Source of the DNA: Lachnospiraceae bacterium
GTDB taxonomy: Bacteria; Bacillota; Clostridia; Lachnospirales; Lachnospiraceae
Direction of reading: 5' to 3'
DNA: 40,647 nt
NCBI GenBank assembly: GCA_900772685.1
Contig: CAAGRP010000090.1
Coordinates: 1 to 40,647, forward strand
Under the pieces are notes generated by a model. The model had not been told where the DNA came from and did no database searches. It saw nothing but the letters and a program-made list of their open reading frames with translations. Positions 28,004-40,502 of the stretch are shown piece after piece. The position numbers and the translations under genes are program-made. Each line of letters starts with the position of its first letter. The stretch's first letter is position 1.

Positions 28004-28161
28004 TTTAAATATTCTAAGAACGCCGAAGCATTCTCCCCTGTGAGAAATCCGGCAAACAAATTTACCGGAGCATACAAAGAACCGGAAACCTGTATCGGTC
28101 TCCGGTTCACTATTATAACTTATATTCTGCCTGTTTTAAAGTAATTGAAGAATTATATATA

Positions 28162-30543
28162 TCAGTTACCTGAATCCTTTGAAGGATCTGTGATCTCTCC
28201 TGTCTTGAAGATATACTGCACCTTACATTCGGTATCTGCCGCAACGCCTGCGAAATCGGTCTTTTCATTAGCATAATCAGCTATTGCCTTAAGTCTGTCA
28301 TAGAATTCACCGACCTTATCACCCATAAGCTCTGCAATCTTCGAGATTCCATCCTCATTAAGAGTATTGATACCGTCTGAGAGGGTATTTGTTCCTTCAA
28401 GTAGCTGAGCTGCTCCCTCGGCAAGAGTCTTTGCTCCGCTGTCGGCAGTACCGGCTCCGCTTGCAAGCTCTTTTGCTCCGCCTGCAACCGCAGCCGCTCC
28501 GCTGTTAAGCGTACCTGCTCCATCTGCAAGGCTCTTTGCTCCGCCGTTAAGTGTATTCGCTCCGCCTGAAAGCTGTCCTACCGCATCGATGAGCTGTTCA
28601 CTCTGTGAATTGAGCTCTTTAAGTCCTTCCGTAAGTGCTCCCATGTTTTCGCTTCCGGCCATATAGTCTATTTTAGGCGCCAGCTCCGAAGCCGACTGTG
28701 AAAGCTCATCCGCTCCGGCATATGCAGCTGCAGCCGCCTCATAAAGACCATATTTTGAAGGTTCCGTGCTGTTGCTCTTTGCTCCTGCCGCAATAGCCTG
28801 TGCACCCTTATTCAAATCATCGGCTCCTGACTGTATCTGAGCAATAACCGCATCAGCCTGTGTTGTATCTGCATTTACTGCCGCAAGTGCCTGCTTAGCT
28901 CCGGAGACTGTCTGCATCTCACCCTGAATGTTTTCGAGTATAGCTGCTGCCTGCTCCTCGTTAAGCGTTCCGCTTTCGATCAGTGCATTTACCGCATCCA
29001 CCGCACTCTGTCCGTATCCGTTTGCACTTTCAAGCGTCTGTACGGCCGTTCCTATATTTGTTTCAAGATTTTCTACTATCTGATCAAGGTTTGCCTTCAA
29101 TGCTCCTGCCGCCTCATAAATACCGAACTGCTTAGGATCTGTGCTTCCGCTTTTTGCTCCGTCCGCCATAGTAAGTGCATTGTCATACAGCGACTGAGCA
29201 CCGTTCATGATAAGTCCGAGAACACTCTTGAGATCTTCGGCTCCGCTTTCCATTGCCGATACTGCTTCGTAAACACCGTATTTGTCAACGCTGCTTGAAT
29301 CTCCGCTCTTAAGAGCTGCCGCAAGCTTAAGGGATCCCTGATACAGCTTGTCTGCTCCGTCAGGAAGCTGTGCTACAGAAGTAGAAAGAAGATCAAGTCC
29401 TCCCACAAGCTGTCCTGCTCCTTCCGATAATGAGTCAGCTCCCGATGAAAGTGTTCCTGTTCCTTTTGACAGCTCATCGGCTCCGCTTGAAAGCGTATCT
29501 GCTCCCGATGCAAGCTTTCCTGTTCCTTCCGATAAGGTATCAGTACCGTCCTTGAGCTCCTTCATATAATCCGAAAGCTCCTTTGCTCCATCCACAAGCT
29601 TATCTGCTCCGTCCTGAAGCTCTGTGGCCGAATCCTTCATGCTGTCGATGTCACTGCTGTATTTATTAAGATCCGTTTCTATAGGAAGATCAAAGCTTGC
29701 AAGTGAAACGGTTCCTATCATTGAGAAATCCGTAACATCAGCTTCTACGGTAACCGTATCCGGTATTATATCATTTATCTTATCAGCTTCTTCCTCATCA
29801 AGCTCGCTAAGATCCAGATTTTCCTTCATTCCCGGAAGCGCGAGACCTACCACAACGCTCCTGTCTCCGTCATTTACAACCTTTCCGTTGGTGACCTTAA
29901 CATTAGAAGACTTCTTGCCATCCATAAGAAGACCCGAAACGACGGCACAAGGCTTGTTAAGAGTTGTCTTCTCCCCGTTTATGGCAATTGTCTTGGAAAG
30001 CCTGTTTTCATATGAAAATTCAACCTCAAGATGTCCGCTTGCTCCTTCAAGCTCCTTTGCACTAACGGTTTTTCCGTCAAGCTTATATGTGATATTTACA
30101 TTTACAGGAAGCTCCTCGTTTGAAGTTCCCTTATAGAAAATATCATCTCCGTGAGCATCCCATGTTATCGTTCCGTCCGGATTCTCGGTATAAGTCTCGT
30201 CGCCCTTTGTATTTTCTATGTCAGTAAGATTTGTCTTGTCGACAAGCTCATCCTTTCCGTCACCGTTCTTCAGCCAGTTGCTGACTATGACGCTGTCCTT
30301 GTTGCCGTCTGCATCCTGTATAACATATACTGTTTCTTCTTTTCCGTTTTCGTCACTCTTTGTTGTCGTTTTAAGCAGCTCCCTGGCTGTCTTTGTAAGT
30401 ATATCTTCGCTTGAAGAGCCCTCCTGTGTGCTGACCTGTGAGCTTGCTTCTGTCTCAACGGCGCATGCCGTAAGTGAAGCTCCCAGTAAGACAGCTGCTG
30501 CAAGAGCGATCATCTTTTTTACTGCCGGTTTAATCTTCAACAT
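28162..30543 (-). CDS. Lipoprotein with YhgE/Pip-type X-X-X-Leu-X-X-Gly heptad repeats
   Basis: 793 aa. Lipobox SLTAC. Long runs of L..GA..L..G repeats, and three internal K(Y/F)G(V/I/L)YEA units. AGGGAGG RBS. Overlaps the MMPL gene end by 14 nt. Confidence 0.8.
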   Translation of the reverse strand: MLKIKPAVKKMIALAAAVLLGASLTACAVETEASSQVSTQEGSSSEDILTKTARELLKTTTKSDENGKEETVYVIQDADGNKDSVIVSNWLKNGDGKDELVDKTNLTDIENTKGDETYTENPDGTITWDAHGDDIFYKGTSNEELPVNVNITYKLDGKTVSAKELEGASGHLEVEFSYENRLSKTIAINGEKTTLNKPCAVVSGLLMDGKKSSNVKVTNGKVVNDGDRSVVVGLALPGMKENLDLSELDEEEADKINDIIPDTVTVEADVTDFSMIGTVSLASFDLPIETDLNKYSSDIDSMKDSATELQDGADKLVDGAKELSDYMKELKDGTDTLSEGTGKLASGADTLSSGADELSKGTGTLSSGADSLSEGAGQLVGGLDLLSTSVAQLPDGADKLYQGSLKLAAALKSGDSSSVDKYGVYEAVSAMESGAEDLKSVLGLIMNGAQSLYDNALTMADGAKSGSTDPKQFGIYEAAGALKANLDQIVENLETNIGTAVQTLESANGYGQSAVDAVNALIESGTLNEEQAAAILENIQGEMQTVSGAKQALAAVNADTTQADAVIAQIQSGADDLNKGAQAIAAGAKSNSTEPSKYGLYEAAAAAYAGADELSQSASELAPKIDYMAGSENMGALTEGLKELNSQSEQLIDAVGQLSGGANTLNGGAKSLADGAGTLNSGAAAVAGGAKELASGAGTADSGAKTLAEGAAQLLEGTNTLSDGINTLNEDGISKIAELMGDKVGEFYDRLKAIADYANEKTDFAGVAADTECKVQYIFKTGEITDPSKDSGN

Positions 30544-33566: not shown

Positions 33567-34112
33567 CTACTCGTCCCAGTATTCATCCCAGTAGTCTTCG
33601 GCATCCTCGAAGCCGTCAAACTCCTCGGGCCACTCTTCGTAGAAATCCTCCGGGTCGTCGTAGTCATATACATAGTACTTATCATCGTCCATGTAGCTGT
33701 TGCTTCCTTGTGTTTTGTTACTGCCATCTGAACTATTATTGTTATTACTACTATTGCTGCTATTATTACTGTTTTGGCTGTTTTGTTCTTTTCTTCGTTT
33801 TGCGAGTTCCTCTTGTCTCTTTTTCTTCGCCTCTTCTGCTTCACGGCTTTCCTGCAGCTGTTTTTCTATGATCTCAGCATGTTCTTTGCAGTATTGGCCT
33901 CTAGCCTCCGCATATTCATCGCAATCGCCGTTCCTGCATCTATGGATTGCGCAATATTTTTTACCTTCTCTTATTACATCGCATCCCTCAACCTTACATT
34001 TCGGCTTATAATAAAGAGCTGCTTTATATATCTCTACTATCAATACCGGCGCTACGAAAAGGCCTATGAAGCCAGCCAGTGCTAACTTTTTTTCAGTCCA
34101 TTTAATTCTCAT
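33567..34112 (-). CDS. Membrane-anchored Cys-rich protein with poly-Asn/Ser tract and acidic-aromatic tail (hypothetical)
   Basis: 181 aa, with GGAGGGAGAGA RBS. One TM helix, then CKVEGC..x9..CAIHRCRNGDC..x10..C.EH, a charged helix, NSQNSNNSSNSSNNNNSS, and ...DYWDEYWDE. Confidence 0.6.
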   Translation of the reverse strand: MRIKWTEKKLALAGFIGLFVAPVLIVEIYKAALYYKPKCKVEGCDVIREGKKYCAIHRCRNGDCDEYAEARGQYCKEHAEIIEKQLQESREAEEAKKKRQEELAKRRKEQNSQNSNNSSNSSNNNNSSDGSNKTQGSNSYMDDDKYYVYDYDDPEDFYEEWPEEFDGFEDAEDYWDEYWDE

Positions 34113-35747: not shown

Positions 35748-35854
35748 TCTCAACTGAGATGACTCAGATTAGAAAAAAGCTGTCTTTATCTACCATTTAT
35801 CATGTGAAACATAGTATAATGACCGGTAGCATCATTTTAAAAGGAGACGCAATT

Positions 35855-36142
35855 TTGAAAACGATCAAAGTTGTTGCCGCGATAATCCGTGATAAAGACA
35901 GAATATTTGCTACCGAACGCGGCTATGGCGAATACAAGGGCCGGTGGGAATTTCCCGATTTCCATCTTTCGATGGACTGTTTCTGGTGTAATATCATCAG
36001 CGGAGACCTTATGTTAAAGGAGCATGAAGCCGCCAGATGGCTGACATCTGAATCTCTTTATGATGTAAACTGGCTTCCTGCAGATAAGTCATTGATTCCA
36101 AAAATAAAAAAGAAATTACAGGAGGTCCACCATGGATGTTAA
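35855..36142 (+). pseudogene. MutT-like NUDIX gene with in-frame loss of the Nudix box
   Basis: TTG start after AAGGAG. The protein reads LKTIKVVAAIIRDKDRIFATERGYGEYKGRWEFP|DFHLSMDCFWCNIISGDLMLKEHEAARWL...LPAD. Family members normally carry about 40 aa (GGK.E.GE....A..RE..EE.G...) between WEFP and (Y)PDF...; that segment is missing here. Confidence 0.55.
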
Positions 36143-36686
36143 GGTGATCCGCTCAAATAGAAAAACCGTAGCTATCAGTGTTAATTCCGATCTGAGTGTT
36201 ACGGTTAAAGCTCCGCAAGGCGTTTCGGAAAAAGATATATACAGGATCCTTGAAGAAAAAAGGGCATGGATATGTACGCACCTTGAGCAGGTCAAAAGAG
36301 ACAAGGCCAGATATGAATCGTCAGGTGCAAAGAAGCTGACCTATGAAGATATAAATATGCTCGCCGACAAGGCTATAGATGTTATTCCCAAAAGGGCTGC
36401 ATATTATGCCCCCATTATCGGCGTCACCTACGGACGTATAACGATCCGCAATCAGAAAACCAGATGGGGCAGTTGCAGTGCCAAAGGAAATCTGAACTTT
36501 AACTGTCTTCTAATGCTGGCACCTCCCAAGGTGCTTGACTATGTTGTGGTCCACGAGCTGTGTCACCGAAAAGAAATGAACCATTCCAAGGCATTCTGGA
36601 CGGAGGTTGAAAAGGTGATGCCGGATTATAAAGAGGCTGTCAGATGGTTGAAGGAAGAGGGCAGTCTGATAATGCAGCGGCTGTAA
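36132..36686 (+). CDS. YgjP/DUF45 (M48-like) HEXXH metallohydrolase
   Basis: 184 aa. RWGSC, then VVVHELCHRKEMNHSKAFW. AGGAGG RBS. Overlaps the NUDIX remnant by 11 nt. This family is commonly linked to type I R-M loci. Confidence 0.85.
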   Translation: MDVKVIRSNRKTVAISVNSDLSVTVKAPQGVSEKDIYRILEEKRAWICTHLEQVKRDKARYESSGAKKLTYEDINMLADKAIDVIPKRAAYYAPIIGVTYGRITIRNQKTRWGSCSAKGNLNFNCLLMLAPPKVLDYVVVHELCHRKEMNHSKAFWTEVEKVMPDYKEAVRWLKEEGSLIMQRL

Positions 36687-36786
36687 TATTTAGTTAAACC
36701 ATATAAGCTCGTTTATATATCGCGGTGCGCTTTTCGTTATTCGAACACTCGAAACGATACAAAAAGTATCAATTGTCCCAGTTTTA

Positions 36787-36815
36787 TTGACCATTTTGGA
36801 ACATGATGATAGAAT
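36787..36815 (+). promoter_or_regulatory. Sigma-A type promoter for the ATPase/TOPRIM pair
   Basis: TTGACC (36787-92) - 17 nt - TAGAAT (36810-15). Confidence 0.55.
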
Positions 36816-36853
36816 AATCTTGTGATATAAACACATAAATGGAGAGGTGTATC

Positions 36854-38245
36854 ATGAGAAAAGGTTGCGTAAGAATAGAAAAAATAGAGATTGAAAACTT
36901 CAAAAACGTTAAAAATGGTCATATCATCTTGAAAAACAACCGAAAAAACTATAAATCAAGCATTCTTGGAATATATGGTCAGAACGGCTCCGGTAAGACA
37001 GCATTAATAGATGCAATTATGCTGTTAAAACTTGCTCTTTGCGGACAGGTTATTCCACCGCAGTATGCAGATTACATTCATGTGGATGCAGAAAATGCAA
37101 AGCTGAAATTTGAACTTTCTGTAGAAGATCCCGAAAACGGAACAGCATATGTTACTGTGTATGAATTCAAAATTAGAAAAGAGCAAAATGATAGCACTTC
37201 AAATCTATCCGAATCAGAAAATACTAAAGCTGTAATTTATGACGAAATACTCAGCAGTTCTTACACACACGATAATAATAAATACAGAATGTCCACTCTT
37301 ATCAACACAAATGCTAAGGGTGCATTCTCGCCAAGAAATAAATACCAGGAGTTTGTCGGTAAAGATAAGGAACTTGCAACAAGCCTTGAAGTTGCAAAAC
37401 GTCTTGCGTCTGCGACTTCAAGATCATTTATTTTCTCAAAAGAACTTTTGTCAGTAATAAAAGAAAATTGCAAGCAACCGATTTATATCGATCTTATTGA
37501 GCTGATGGTACAATATGGAAATTTCGAACTGTTTGTAATTAATACTCAAAATAACGGACTTATTACAATGAATGCCCTTCCCCTGGCATTTAAATACGAA
37601 AACGAAAATTCAGGCGTTGCTGGAAACATCATGCTTCCGCTTGACGAGGCAGCAACAATACCGAAAGAAGCTGCAGAGTTAATTGAAGAGATCATCCCAA
37701 ATATGAATATGGTCCTTACTCAAATCGTTCCAGGACTTACTATCAGTATGTACAACTTTGGTCCGCAGGTATTGAAAAACGGAAATATCGGATGCCGGGT
37801 TCAGCTAATGTCTAAGAAAAACAGTAAAGAAATCCCTTTGCGTTATGAATCTGATGGTATTAAAAAAATCGTATCCATCTTACAGCTTCTTATCGTTGTT
37901 TATAATAAGCCTTCCATTACAGTAGCAATCGGCGAGCTTGATTCAGGAGTGTTTGAATACCTGCTAGGCGAACTACTCAGAATAATTTCCGAAAAAGGCA
38001 AGGGGCAATTAATCTTTACTTCACACAATCTGCGTCCATTGGAAACTTTAGATCGTGGATTTATTGCATTCACCACAACAAATCCGGAAAATCGTTACTT
38101 GAGAATGACTAATGTAAAAGAGAACAATAATTTAAGAGATTTCTATTACAGAGATATCGTTCTGGGTGAACAGAACGAAGTAATTTACGAACCTACAAAC
38201 AACTATGAAATAGCACTGGCATTTAGAGAGGCTGGTGAAATGTAG
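36854..38245 (+). CDS. ABC/SMC-head type ATPase (AAA_15/AAA_21-like) of a two-gene defence-type module
   Basis: IEIENFKN...GQNGSGKTALIDAI (Walker A), about 250 aa helical insert, ESDGIKKI (signature-like), VAIGELDSGV (Walker B position, Gly where Asp is expected), FTSHN (H-loop). ATG 36854 follows GGAGAGG; the track start at 36839 is in-frame. Confidence 0.85.
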   Translation: MRKGCVRIEKIEIENFKNVKNGHIILKNNRKNYKSSILGIYGQNGSGKTALIDAIMLLKLALCGQVIPPQYADYIHVDAENAKLKFELSVEDPENGTAYVTVYEFKIRKEQNDSTSNLSESENTKAVIYDEILSSSYTHDNNKYRMSTLINTNAKGAFSPRNKYQEFVGKDKELATSLEVAKRLASATSRSFIFSKELLSVIKENCKQPIYIDLIELMVQYGNFELFVINTQNNGLITMNALPLAFKYENENSGVAGNIMLPLDEAATIPKEAAELIEEIIPNMNMVLTQIVPGLTISMYNFGPQVLKNGNIGCRVQLMSKKNSKEIPLRYESDGIKKIVSILQLLIVVYNKPSITVAIGELDSGVFEYLLGELLRIISEKGKGQLIFTSHNLRPLETLDRGFIAFTTTNPENRYLRMTNVKENNNLRDFYYRDIVLGEQNEVIYEPTNNYEIALAFREAGEM

Positions 38246-38934
38246 TGGCAAAACGAAAAATCGTCTTTGTAATTGTAGAGGGTCCATCTGACGACGAAGC
38301 ATTAGGTGTCCTTTTTTCAAAAATCTATGATAAAGATTCTGTCTATGTTCACATCATTCACGGTGATATAACTACTCAGACAGGAGTCACATCTGCCAAT
38401 ATTGTATCAAAGGTCGGAAATTGTATAAGACATTATGCTACGCAAAATCATTACAGAGCATCTGATTTTAAGGACATCATTCATATTATAGATATGGATG
38501 ATGCTTATATTCCGGATTCAGCAATAAAAAAAGACGAAACTGCTGTAAAACCTTTTTACAGCACTAATAAAATACACTCTGCAAATCCAGAGGCAATCAT
38601 TAACAGGAATGTCAGAAAGCGCGAAAATATCGATCGTCTGAAATCCACAGGACATATCTGGAAACTTCCGTATGGAATTTATTACATGTCCTGCAACCTG
38701 GATCATGCTTTATACGGGAAACTCAACAGCTCAGATGAAGAAAAGGAAAAAGACGCATATCTCTTCGCCAAAAGATACCGGAACGATATTTCTGGATTTA
38801 TAAAGTACATAAAAGAATCAGATTTTTCAACAGGTTCTGATTACAAAGAATCATGGGATTACATCACAAAAGATCTGCACTCATTAGAACGACATACTAA
38901 TCTTGGTTTGTGTTTTAACGAATCTGCTAATTAA
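38245..38934 (+). CDS. Small TOPRIM-like protein (RloB / DUF4276 / AriB-like class)
   Basis: 229 aa. The GTG start shares one nt with the ATPase TAG stop. VFVIVEGPSDDE (TOPRIM Glu) and IIHIIDMDDAY (DxD) lie at the spacing expected for a TOPRIM fold. Confidence 0.65.
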   Translation: MAKRKIVFVIVEGPSDDEALGVLFSKIYDKDSVYVHIIHGDITTQTGVTSANIVSKVGNCIRHYATQNHYRASDFKDIIHIIDMDDAYIPDSAIKKDETAVKPFYSTNKIHSANPEAIINRNVRKRENIDRLKSTGHIWKLPYGIYYMSCNLDHALYGKLNSSDEEKEKDAYLFAKRYRNDISGFIKYIKESDFSTGSDYKESWDYITKDLHSLERHTNLGLCFNESAN

Positions 38935-38999: not shown

Positions 39000-40502
39000 A
39001 TGGTTACAGGTGAATTAAAAAATAAAATAGACAGTTTATGGGAAATCTTCTGGACCGGCGGATTAACAAACCCGTTAGAGGTAATTGAACAGATGACATA
39101 TCTGATGTTCATACGCGATCTCGATGATTCAGATAATCTTCATGCAAAGGAAGCAACCATGCTAGGACTTCCACATAAAAGCATATTTGCTGATGAAGTA
39201 CAGATCGGAGACCGTACTATTGCAGGCAACCAACTGAAATGGAGTGTATTCCATGATTTTCCCGCTTCAAAAATGTACAGCACAATGCAGGAATGGGTAT
39301 TTCCATTTATCAAAAACCTCCACGGTGATAAAGACAGCGCATATTCTAAATATATGAACGATGCTATCTTTAAAGTACCCACACCATTGATGCTTGATAA
39401 AATCGTCACTGCAATGGATGCCATTTATGATCAGATGGCTCAATTGAAATCTGCTGACACGAGAGGAGATGTGTACGAATATCTCCTTTCAAAACTTGCA
39501 ACAGCAGGCGTGAATGGTCAGTTCCGCACACCCAGACATATTATTCGTATGATGGTGGAAATGATGGATCCGAAAGCCGATGAGATTATATGCGACCCAG
39601 CATGCGGCACATCCGGTTTCCTTGTATCTGCAAGTGAATATTTAAAAGAAGAAAAAAAAGAGGAAGTATTCTTTAATAAGCACAATAAAAATCATTATAT
39701 GAACCATATGTTTCACGGATTTGATATGGACCGAACCATGCTTCGAATCGGTGCCATGAACATGATGACACACGGTGTTGATAACCCTTATATCGAGTAT
39801 CGAGATAGTCTGTCAGATCAGAATCCGGACAAAGATAAATACAGTTTAATCCTTGCAAATCCTCCGTTTAAAGGAAGTCTTGATTACGACTCCGTAAGTG
39901 CGGATCTGCTTAAAGTATGCAAAACAAAAAAGACAGAATTATTATTCCTAGCCTTATTTGTCCGCATGCTTAAAGTCGGCGGCCGCTGTGCATGTATCGT
40001 TCCCGACGGAGTATTATTTGGTTCTTCAAAGGCTCACAAAGATATCCGTAAGGCAATAGTTGAAGAAAATCGACTTGAAGCTGTTATTTCTATGCCTTCC
40101 GGCGTCTTCAAACCATATGCCGGAGTATCTACTGCTATTCTGATCTTCACCAAGACCGGACACGGCGGAACGGACAATGTATGGTTCTATGACATGAAGG
40201 CTGACGGCTTCAGTTTAGATGACAAGCGAAGCGAAACAAATGAAAATGATATTCCGGATATCATTGAACGTTTCAAAAACCTTGATAAAGAGATTGAAAG
40301 AAAACGAACCGACCAAAGCTTCCTTGTATCCAAACGGGAAATTGCAGATAATGATTATGATCTGAGTATCAATAAATACAAAGAAGTAGAATATGTAACA
40401 GTAGAGTATCCGCCAACTCAGGAAATAATTGCTGACCTTCGCGAATTGGAGACGCAAATCAGCAGGGAAATGGATGAGTTGGAGAAGTTATTGGGGTTAT
40501 AA
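39000..40502 (+). CDS. hsdM: Type I restriction-modification methyltransferase subunit M
   Basis: 500 aa. HsdM N-terminal domain, motif I DPACGTSGFL, motif IV NPPF, and a C-terminal NDYDLS tail. Confidence 0.92.
   Translation: MVTGELKNKIDSLWEIFWTGGLTNPLEVIEQMTYLMFIRDLDDSDNLHAKEATMLGLPHKSIFADEVQIGDRTIAGNQLKWSVFHDFPASKMYSTMQEWVFPFIKNLHGDKDSAYSKYMNDAIFKVPTPLMLDKIVTAMDAIYDQMAQLKSADTRGDVYEYLLSKLATAGVNGQFRTPRHIIRMMVEMMDPKADEIICDPACGTSGFLVSASEYLKEEKKEEVFFNKHNKNHYMNHMFHGFDMDRTMLRIGAMNMMTHGVDNPYIEYRDSLSDQNPDKDKYSLILANPPFKGSLDYDSVSADLLKVCKTKKTELLFLALFVRMLKVGGRCACIVPDGVLFGSSKAHKDIRKAIVEENRLEAVISMPSGVFKPYAGVSTAILIFTKTGHGGTDNVWFYDMKADGFSLDDKRSETNENDIPDIIERFKNLDKEIERKRTDQSFLVSKREIADNDYDLSINKYKEVEYVTVEYPPTQEIIADLRELETQISREMDELEKLLGL

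Follow-up and report, generated by a model that had tools for sequence, protein, structure and literature searches.

On contig CAAGRP010000090.1 of a Lachnospiraceae bacterium, a cassette of two overlapping genes, here called A and B, occupies approximately positions 36,752–38,934 (+ strand) of the 40,647-nucleotide (nt) stretch that was analyzed, hereafter the window. The best explanation for this pair, to which a probability of roughly 0.65 is assigned, is that an OLD/Rad50-type ATP-binding cassette (ABC) ATPase encoded by A operates with a separate TOPRIM nuclease module encoded by B, as kin to PARIS, AbiL, RloAB, HEC-01, and MADS3–4. The ATPase/TOPRIM architecture as such is already known; the B family is large and has no database model. 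One promoter drives the overlapping A and B genes, and the unit moves between chromosomes, an integrative and conjugative element (ICE), plasmids, and a phage-plasmid.

The pair is an autonomous and horizontally mobile unit that spans the promoter and both genes. A gene-neighborhood survey, which a first-pass annotation of this DNA had called for, covered 91 fetched loci, namely 80 species-representative loci and 11 others, and in every one of them a homolog of A (53–85% identity) is located directly upstream of B and overlaps it, by 11 nt in 83 loci and by 1 nt in six, the window being of this latter type. Together with the promoter described below, this overlap bears out the earlier view of an ABC ATPase and a small protein encoded as a coupled, self-promoted pair. 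The limits of the mobile cassette (36,752–38,934, + strand) are drawn from DNA homology and guanine–cytosine (GC) content. Homology of the window to its nearest relatives (loci L012, from Dorea sp. CAG:317, and L013) is limited to 36,752–38,916, a segment that holds the promoter, A, and B, and the GC fraction is 0.34–0.385 in the cassette versus 0.40–0.48 in its flanks. Flanking repeats, Rfam structured RNAs, and terminators were searched as possible delimiters of the cassette, and none was found.

The chromosomal and element contexts that host the pair are unrelated to each other and include a Tn916-like ICE, a sugar-nucleotide operon, a TniB/DUF6937 region near hsdR, and a cobalamin operon adjoining a methyltransferase. 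Moreover, the pair is carried by plasmids of Ruminococcus albus, Bacillus, Lysinibacillus, Paenibacillus, and Cetobacterium, as well as by a Clostridioides phage-plasmid, and the annotated copies on plasmids and phage-plasmids are always labelled “AAA family ATPase” and “hypothetical protein”. Genomes with a B relative belong mostly to Lachnospiraceae, Oscillospiraceae, and other Clostridia, and also to Erysipelotrichaceae, Negativicutes, Sphaerochaeta, and Fretibacterium. The homologs of B form 1,458 clusters at 90% identity, all of them unnamed and without a Pfam domain, while 1.84 billion representatives at 50% identity, searched by profile, yielded at least 1,781 B-family clusters at E ≤ 1e-3 and 628 at E ≤ 1e-30. 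A motif-seeded scan with one genome per species found a B relative in at least 501 of 185,579 species genomes.

Some individual loci depart from this pattern or stand outside current annotation. The 132-kb phage-plasmid record of the Clostridioides phage pCD1602_4, which is without annotation, contains a B homolog with 34% identity (E 2e-32) at 28,037–28,717 of CP069348.1. On the megaplasmid of [Eubacterium] eligens ATCC 27750 (NC_012780.1; L100, 4001–5760), a solo ATPase 59% identical to A has an IS256 transposase upstream, and after it come an inverted repeat resembling a hairpin and small genes of unrelated kinds; nothing of gene B was found there, and no other locus seen had A without B. 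A distant ATPase (25% identity, AAA_21 at 4e-18) is present on an Enterococcus faecalis conjugative plasmid (NZ_CP090559.1; L101, 4010–5968), followed 4 nt on by a 195-amino-acid (aa) protein that starts with FKKALVIVHGKSEY and contains IVHGKSE, in which a His occupies the position of the TOPRIM Glu. This partner was considered as a bridge to RloB and rejected, as it gave no Pfam hit and no profile match; it may represent another unmodelled partner family.

The promoter of the cassette (36,787–36,815, + strand) is of the sigma-70 extended −10 type, TTGACC-17 nt-TGaTAGAAT, with the −35 element TTGACC at 36,787–36,792, a 17-nt spacer, the −10 element TAGAAT at 36,810–36,815, and a TG at 36,807–36,808. 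It outscores every other match in the surrounding 5-kb region (10 of 12 positions plus the TGn). Since the number of promoter-like matches in this region is not above that of shuffled sequences (15 vs. 17.1), the support for the promoter is comparative. In a search for the extended −10 pattern TTGACA-17-TGnTAnnnT with at least 9 of 12 matches, 49 of 81 distinct cassettes had an equivalent promoter 15–90 nt 5’ of A, compared with none of the 154 control windows and a mean of 0.3 in shuffles. The promoter is also at the same position in L012 and L013. The near-consensus promoter (TTGACC-17-TAGAAT) that had been proposed as the pair’s own is thus corroborated by its retention across cassettes.

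Gene A is best read as a 463-aa protein (36,854–38,245, + strand), with ATG 36,854 preferred as its start over the longest reading from 36,839, which would give an open reading frame (ORF) of 468 aa (36,839–38,245, + strand). Gene callers picked ATG 36,854 on eight sister contigs, most homologs of A begin to align at the residue it encodes, and the sequence offers a Shine–Dalgarno element, GGAGAGGTG, at 36,841–36,849 (+ strand) to serve it. At the junction between both genes (ATG-TAG/GTG), the G at 38,245 is common to the stop codon of A and the start codon of B, which agrees with the one-nucleotide overlap reported earlier. GGTGA lies 6 nt 5’ of the GTG of gene B, and B homologs begin with MAKRK or MARKK at the position equivalent to this start.

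The product of A is an ABC ATPase by profile thresholds and by fold, and Pfam, PADLOC, and an AlphaFold2 (AF2) model place it among Rad50/SMC/OLD-type enzymes. It exceeds the Pfam cut-offs of SMC_N (43.7 bits, cut-off 40), AAA_15 (43.6, cut-off 32.1), AAA_21 (41.4, cut-off 27), and AAA_23 (41.4, cut-off 27). The best PADLOC model is AbiLi (3.8e-25), whose match covers residues 8–437 and only a part of the profile (45–277 of 326), followed by AriA (6e-14 and 8e-14), mad3 (9e-13), HEC-01A (5e-10), and PtuA. These profile hidden Markov model searches place the ATPase among the AAA_15/AAA_21 defense ATPases, in line with the previous reading of an ABC/SMC-head ATPase. In addition, the N-terminus matches RecF (TIGR00611, 5.5e-8; PDB 2o5v). 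The AF2 model, with a predicted local distance difference test score (pLDDT) of 74 and a predicted template modelling score (pTM) of 0.79, consists of an ABC head and a helical insert at residues ~160–290, and its Foldseek matches include Rad50 (5e-14) and PtuA ATPases from Septu systems and retrons (1e-10 to 1e-12).

All features that had been described for a 464–468 aa ATPase, namely GQNGSGKT, ESDGIKK, FTSHN, and the long helical insert, were recovered in the ORF map, the sequence, and the model. Walker A (GQNGSGKT, residues 42–49; 36,977–37,000, + strand) is invariant in 47 homologs, the ABC signature-like segment YESDGIKK (residues 331–338; 37,844–37,867, + strand) has invariant E332, S333, G335, K337, and K338, and the H-loop FTSHN (residues 388–392; 38,015–38,029, + strand) is invariant as well. 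The last 40 residues (424–463; 38,123–38,242, + strand) form a conserved C-terminal tail that is almost invariant, yet is modelled with a pLDDT of ~30 in the monomer. Because of this combination, the tail is read as likely partner-binding, and it is a candidate interface for the docking of B or for oligomerization.

Gene B (38,245–38,934, + strand) starts at a GTG and encodes a TOPRIM-like effector candidate of 229 aa. There is a strong likelihood that this protein combines a TOPRIM-type catalytic core with a family-specific C-terminal half. It is not a DUF4435, RloB, or DUF4276 protein. The putative core (residues 4–95; 38,254–38,529, + strand) is delineated by invariant acidic residues, sub-threshold profile matches, and the AF2 model. 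VEGPSDDE (with E12) and IDMDD (with D83 and D85) are present as the first-pass annotation had described them, and E12, D83, and D85 are invariant in a 37-sequence set as well as in a 49-sequence set. Across these 49 relatives (32–57% identity), the invariant residues are E12, G13, D41, D83, D85, R121, N122, K125, S149, K167, and N219, while N151 and H154 are near-invariant. In the AF2 model of B (pLDDT 84, pTM 0.83), the N-terminal secondary structure runs β1 (5–11), α1 (17–31), β2 (33–39), α2 (53–67), and β3 (75–83), so that E12-G13..D16 follows β1, G40-D41 follows β2, and D83-x-D85 follows β3. This arrangement, with a Glu behind the first strand and a DxD behind the third, agrees with the definition of TOPRIM domains (PMC12065111, quoting Aravind 1998), as does the motif spacing of B, EGxxD, GD, and DxDG on β1, β2, and β3, respectively.

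Profile matches of the relatives of B point weakly in the same direction. The three most frequent Pfam families among the 49 singly scanned relatives are Toprim (18/49), DUF4276 (15/49), and OLD-like_TOPRIM (7/49), and their most frequent PADLOC matches are the ATPase-partner models HEC-01B, mad4, and PDC-M38B. The sub-threshold matches are all in register, from the N-terminus through the DxD, and cover positions 1–69 of 96 in Toprim, 1–86 of 192 in DUF4276, 4–38 of 67 in OLD-like_TOPRIM, and 4–77 of 195 in RloB. The best E value for Pfam Toprim among the relatives is 1e-3, and the family consensus reaches 18.6 bits versus a cut-off of 23.1. Alignments of the B family with hhalign picked the catalytic-Glu strand of P2 Old (LLVEGKTE) at a weak E of 0.07 and that of Escherichia coli DnaG at a weak E of 0.12. 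Direct scans with B, and B-family profiles run against PDB and NCBIfam, gave no meaningful match (Cas7e, Mre11, and chorismate mutase at E 1e-3 or worse). Likewise, when plasmids were searched with B and the family consensus by tblastn, at E values up to 10, for annotated DUF4276 or RloB relatives, only family members labelled “hypothetical protein” were retrieved. Some members of the family carry additional sequence: one representative of 413 aa (P0172) has ~247 extra N-terminal residues, and single members of the B alignment match Ribosomal_L12, or DUF2828 plus DUF7788, at E 1e-16 to 1e-20. These extensions and extra domains could reflect fusions or errors of gene calling.

By analogy with PARIS, A would oligomerize and hold B inactive, and an ATP-dependent encounter with a phage-made trigger would free or activate B. 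The metal-dependent TOPRIM site of B would then cut host or phage nucleic acid (tRNA in PARIS), aborting the infection. We infer complex formation, the trigger, nuclease activity, and the substrate by such analogy, as well as the effect of a substitution that distinguishes the window copy of A. Its Walker B (37,919–37,942, + strand) reads TVAIGELD, with Gly360 where 84 of 85 distinct homologs have Asp in the motif TVA[IV]DE[LMIF]D. The GGC codon (37,931–37,933) is present in all eight independent metagenome contigs of the lineage (L092–L099) and, therefore, Gly360 is real and fixed in this lineage. Walker A, the signature, and the H-loop are intact in the window, so that the catalytic set is incomplete only at Walker B, but it is complete in the family. 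General decay of the pair was considered and rejected, as the number of deviations at sites conserved in at least 95% of the sequences is average (2 of 143 in A, with a median of 1, and 1 of 50 in B). In PARIS, an ATP-binding-deficient AriA loads AriB, but without trigger recognition or AriB release, and defense needs AriA’s ATPase activity (PMC11464382). By analogy with these AriA ATP-site mutants, A with Gly360 would keep loading B yet fail to release it. Thus, the window copy is probably non-toxic and immune-dead, or altered, though both ORFs are otherwise intact.

The cassette is flanked upstream by a YgjP-like metallopeptidase gene (36,132–36,686, + strand; Pfam PF01863, 2e-52) and downstream by a type I hsdM (39,000–40,502, + strand; Pfam N6_Mtase, 5e-67, and HsdM_N), and these Pfam matches confirm the placement given in the first-pass annotation. 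However, its description of the pair as nested inside a type I restriction–modification (R-M) locus calls for correction. The pair borders, on the 5’ side, a type I locus that is polymorphic and in part eroded, and is not clearly inside it, since only the hsdM of the type I system lies within the window and identical strains have no hsdS or hsdR. A sister contig 99.96% identical to the window (L092, 10,756–17,631) carries, in order, YgjP, A, B, hsdM, an hsdS of half size (165 aa), YhcG/DUF1016, and hsdR; hsdR is missing from another sister strain, and in L095 and L099, which are 100% identical to the window, neither hsdS nor hsdR follows hsdM. In the window-identical contigs, hsdM is directly followed by a D-Tyr-tRNA deacylase gene on the opposite strand, and the window stops at this breakpoint. 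Exact-protein look-ups for an empty site, in which YgjP would adjoin hsdM, found none.

A functional tie to the adjacent type I system, which had also been suggested, is not supported. None of the 80 species-representative loci has a homolog of the window hsdM, hsdS, hsdR, YhcG, or YgjP within 6 kb of the pair and, therefore, conserved linkage does not mark the pair as an accessory of R-M systems. Of the 11 remaining loci, L010 and L011 are near a methyltransferase and L008 is near hsdR. ABC-ATPase dyads are frequently found within R-M, BREX, and Hma loci (PMC12839542).

Several results weigh against the reading of the pair as an ABC ATPase with a TOPRIM nuclease. The window B itself matches nothing, and no TOPRIM model, in Pfam, NCBIfam, PADLOC, PHROGs, or PDB sequences, and all TOPRIM-type matches among its relatives fall below gathering cut-offs. 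An hhalign comparison with 40 true DUF4276/HEC-01B sequences, in an alignment built from the published HEC-01B sequence, placed 74 columns in register (E–E, DxD–DQD) with an E of 0.025 and a probability of 2%. Moreover, a Foldseek search of the whole B model against PDB and BFVD returned no TOPRIM or significant neighbor, with a best template modelling (TM) score of ~0.3, and HEC-01, the nearest modelled dyad with a DUF4276 partner, gave no defense in assays (bioRxiv 10.1101/2024.01.29.577857). The earlier TOPRIM reading of the 229-aa protein draws weak support from the invariant E12, D83, and D85 and the in-register, sub-threshold matches of the relatives, and finds no backing in the profile searches with the window protein or in the fold search. 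If B were not a TOPRIM protein, it could have another flavodoxin/Rossmann-like α/β fold, such as an SGNH-like hydrolase or a nucleotide-binding regulator, and its E/DxD likeness would have arisen by chance; the top Foldseek matches, namely the SGNH acetyltransferase PatB, PurE, flavodoxin-like, and TIR folds, would fit this possibility, as would the sub-threshold level of the TOPRIM profile matches. Nevertheless, those fold matches reach TM scores of 0.2–0.3 at E 1e-3 or worse, whereas three TOPRIM-clan Pfam families and three PADLOC partner models are the most frequent across the 49 relatives, always in the same register, and the EGxxD/GD/DxDG spacing on β1–β3 agrees with the TOPRIM definition, so a non-TOPRIM fold is quite improbable. 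A TOPRIM fold in B would also be compatible with a RecF/RecR- or Rad50-like DNA maintenance pair, in which an SMC-type ATPase and a non-catalytic TOPRIM partner act on DNA ends. RecR, itself a small TOPRIM protein, works with an SMC-like ATPase, the N-terminus of A matches RecF, and Rad50 is among the best fold matches of A. However, the RecF matches are limited to the generic P-loop lobe, the pair is mobile and sporadically distributed (501 of 185,579 species genomes by the motif used), and B has neither the helix–hairpin–helix nor the Cys4 zinc-finger sequence features of RecR, while all its acidic catalytic positions are invariant. Accordingly, a role in DNA maintenance is extremely unlikely.

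The mobility of the pair could also be accounted for by a toxin–antitoxin (TA)-like addiction module, in which B is the toxin and A its neutralizer, and which stabilizes mobile elements and islands without phage sensing. The occurrence on an ICE, plasmids, and a phage-plasmid, the tight gene overlap under a promoter of its own, and the solo A of E. eligens, which fits toxin loss with the antidote kept, are all in line with such a module, and PARIS itself has been described as type II TA-like (PMC13064643). Against this stand the many copies in chromosomal, non-mobile contexts, the cost, for an antitoxin, of an ABC ATPase of 463 aa whose catalytic site is conserved, and the fact that the ATPase–TOPRIM dyads with data (PARIS, AbiL) are phage defenses. 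Moreover, TA behavior and defense can coexist, and pure addiction without defense seems rather improbable. The position of the pair in the window evokes, in turn, an R-M-linked guard similar to PrrC or PARIS, which would watch the type I enzyme and fire when an anti-restriction protein disables it: the pair shares its strand with the YgjP-like gene and hsdM, which flank it, a terminator scan found no terminator-like site between gene B and hsdM, the dyads cited above often occupy type I R-M, BREX, or Hma loci, and type I loci of Campylobacter are where RloAB was first noticed. Nevertheless, linkage to hsdM, hsdS, or hsdR is seen in 0 of 80 other species’ loci, even relatives at 80–85% identity sit elsewhere, and window-identical strains without hsdS and hsdR still keep the pair, which leaves this explanation very little likelihood. 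Finally, there is a bolder version of the defense reading, which is unlikely. The B family would be an effector class of its own, combining a TOPRIM-like core with a fused, conserved C-terminal module (R121, N122, K125, S149, K167, and N219, with N151 and H154) without structural likeness in PDB or among viral models. With an AbiLi-like ATPase, it would form a widespread defense system of gut Clostridia whose substrate or trigger differs from those of PARIS and AbiL. ATP hydrolysis would then be dispensable for some retained function, because the Walker B Gly is fixed while both ORFs are otherwise intact.

Two further ORFs of the window were noted outside the cassette. A 127-aa ORF (35,759–36,142, + strand) that overlaps the start of the YgjP-like gene by 11 nt has a weak NUDIX_4 match (E 0.002), apparently without a Nudix box, and may be a degraded MutT-like gene. 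On the opposite strand, a 181-aa ORF (33,567–34,112, − strand) encodes a protein whose N-terminal half is rich in Cys, with a poly-Asn/Ser tract and a highly acidic tail rich in Asp, Glu, Tyr, and Trp, and gave no Pfam match on sister contigs.

Dyads that pair an ABC ATPase with a TOPRIM protein are a major theme of prokaryotic immunity, and current tools recognize them through the DUF4435, RloB, and DUF4276 partner models. The B family goes undetected by Pfam, NCBIfam, PADLOC v2, and PHROGs and, for lack of a model in these resources, its loci are annotated as an AAA family ATPase with a hypothetical protein. Since this family is abundant in human- and animal-gut Clostridia, a family model would add a sizeable number of candidate defense loci in gut commensals. 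Moreover, the cassette is a compact, 2.2-kb, self-promoted unit for studying how ABC ATPases gate TOPRIM effectors, for which the natural Walker B variant provides a ready-made control.

Among the known systems, AbiL of Lactococcus (AbiLi and the RloB-type TOPRIM protein AbiLii) and Campylobacter RloAB likewise consist of a two-gene operon for an ATPase and a small TOPRIM protein; AbiLi is the best PADLOC model for A, and AbiL is likewise associated with Firmicutes and mobile DNA. However, B matches neither AbiLii nor RloB: no AbiLii model in PADLOC is matched by B or its relatives, RloB (PF13707) is matched by one of 49 relatives at E 0.06 (13.9 bits vs. a cut-off of 31.5), and B has VEGPSD instead of the N-terminal RloB motif given in the first-pass annotation. 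PARIS, i.e., the ABC ATPase AriA with the DUF4435 TOPRIM protein AriB (OLD class 4), is likewise split into two genes, and AriA is similar in size to A and has helical insertions, although A matches AriA at 6e-14, far below AbiLi, and AriA structures are outside the top 50 Foldseek matches of A. PARIS is switched on by an anti-restriction protein such as Ocr and then cleaves tRNA. On the partner side, neither B nor its 49 relatives have an AriB (PADLOC) or DUF4435 (Pfam) match among the reported families, and B, with 229 aa, is smaller than AriB (35 kDa). Thus, of the previous statement that both proteins fall below AriA and AriB in size, the part on B holds clearly, whereas A (463 aa) is about as large as AriA.

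HEC-01 and MAD3/MAD4 of MADS combine an ABC ATPase with a DUF4276 TOPRIM protein. A matches mad3 at 9e-13 and HEC-01A at 5e-10, and relatives of B match DUF4276 (15/49), HEC-01B, and mad4, with an N-terminal core that aligns E to E and DxD to DQD. Nevertheless, the best match on the B side is 20.2 bits versus a cut-off of 30.2 (PF14103), the window B has no match, and the C-terminal 130 residues of B are unrelated; besides, HEC-01 and MADS are mainly proteobacterial, whereas the B family is mainly found in Clostridia. The PtuA ATPases of Septu and retrons and the Rad50 heads resemble A in having an ABC fold with a helical or coiled-coil insert (Foldseek 5e-14 to 1e-10, identity 11–15%), although their partners, the HNH nuclease PtuB and Mre11, respectively, are not TOPRIM proteins, unlike in the pair described here. 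In turn, OLD proteins of classes 1 and 2 (P2 Old, GajA) contain the same combination of ABC ATPase and TOPRIM but in fused form, while here both parts are separate ORFs in 91 of 91 loci, and the OLD-like_TOPRIM matches of B relatives are sub-threshold (7/49). The earlier expectation that the pair would fall outside the textbook forms of PARIS, AbiL, and OLD is consistent with the failure of the small protein in every partner model. Therefore, the pair is set apart from PARIS, AbiL, and the DUF4276 systems by its partner protein, and from OLD by being unfused.

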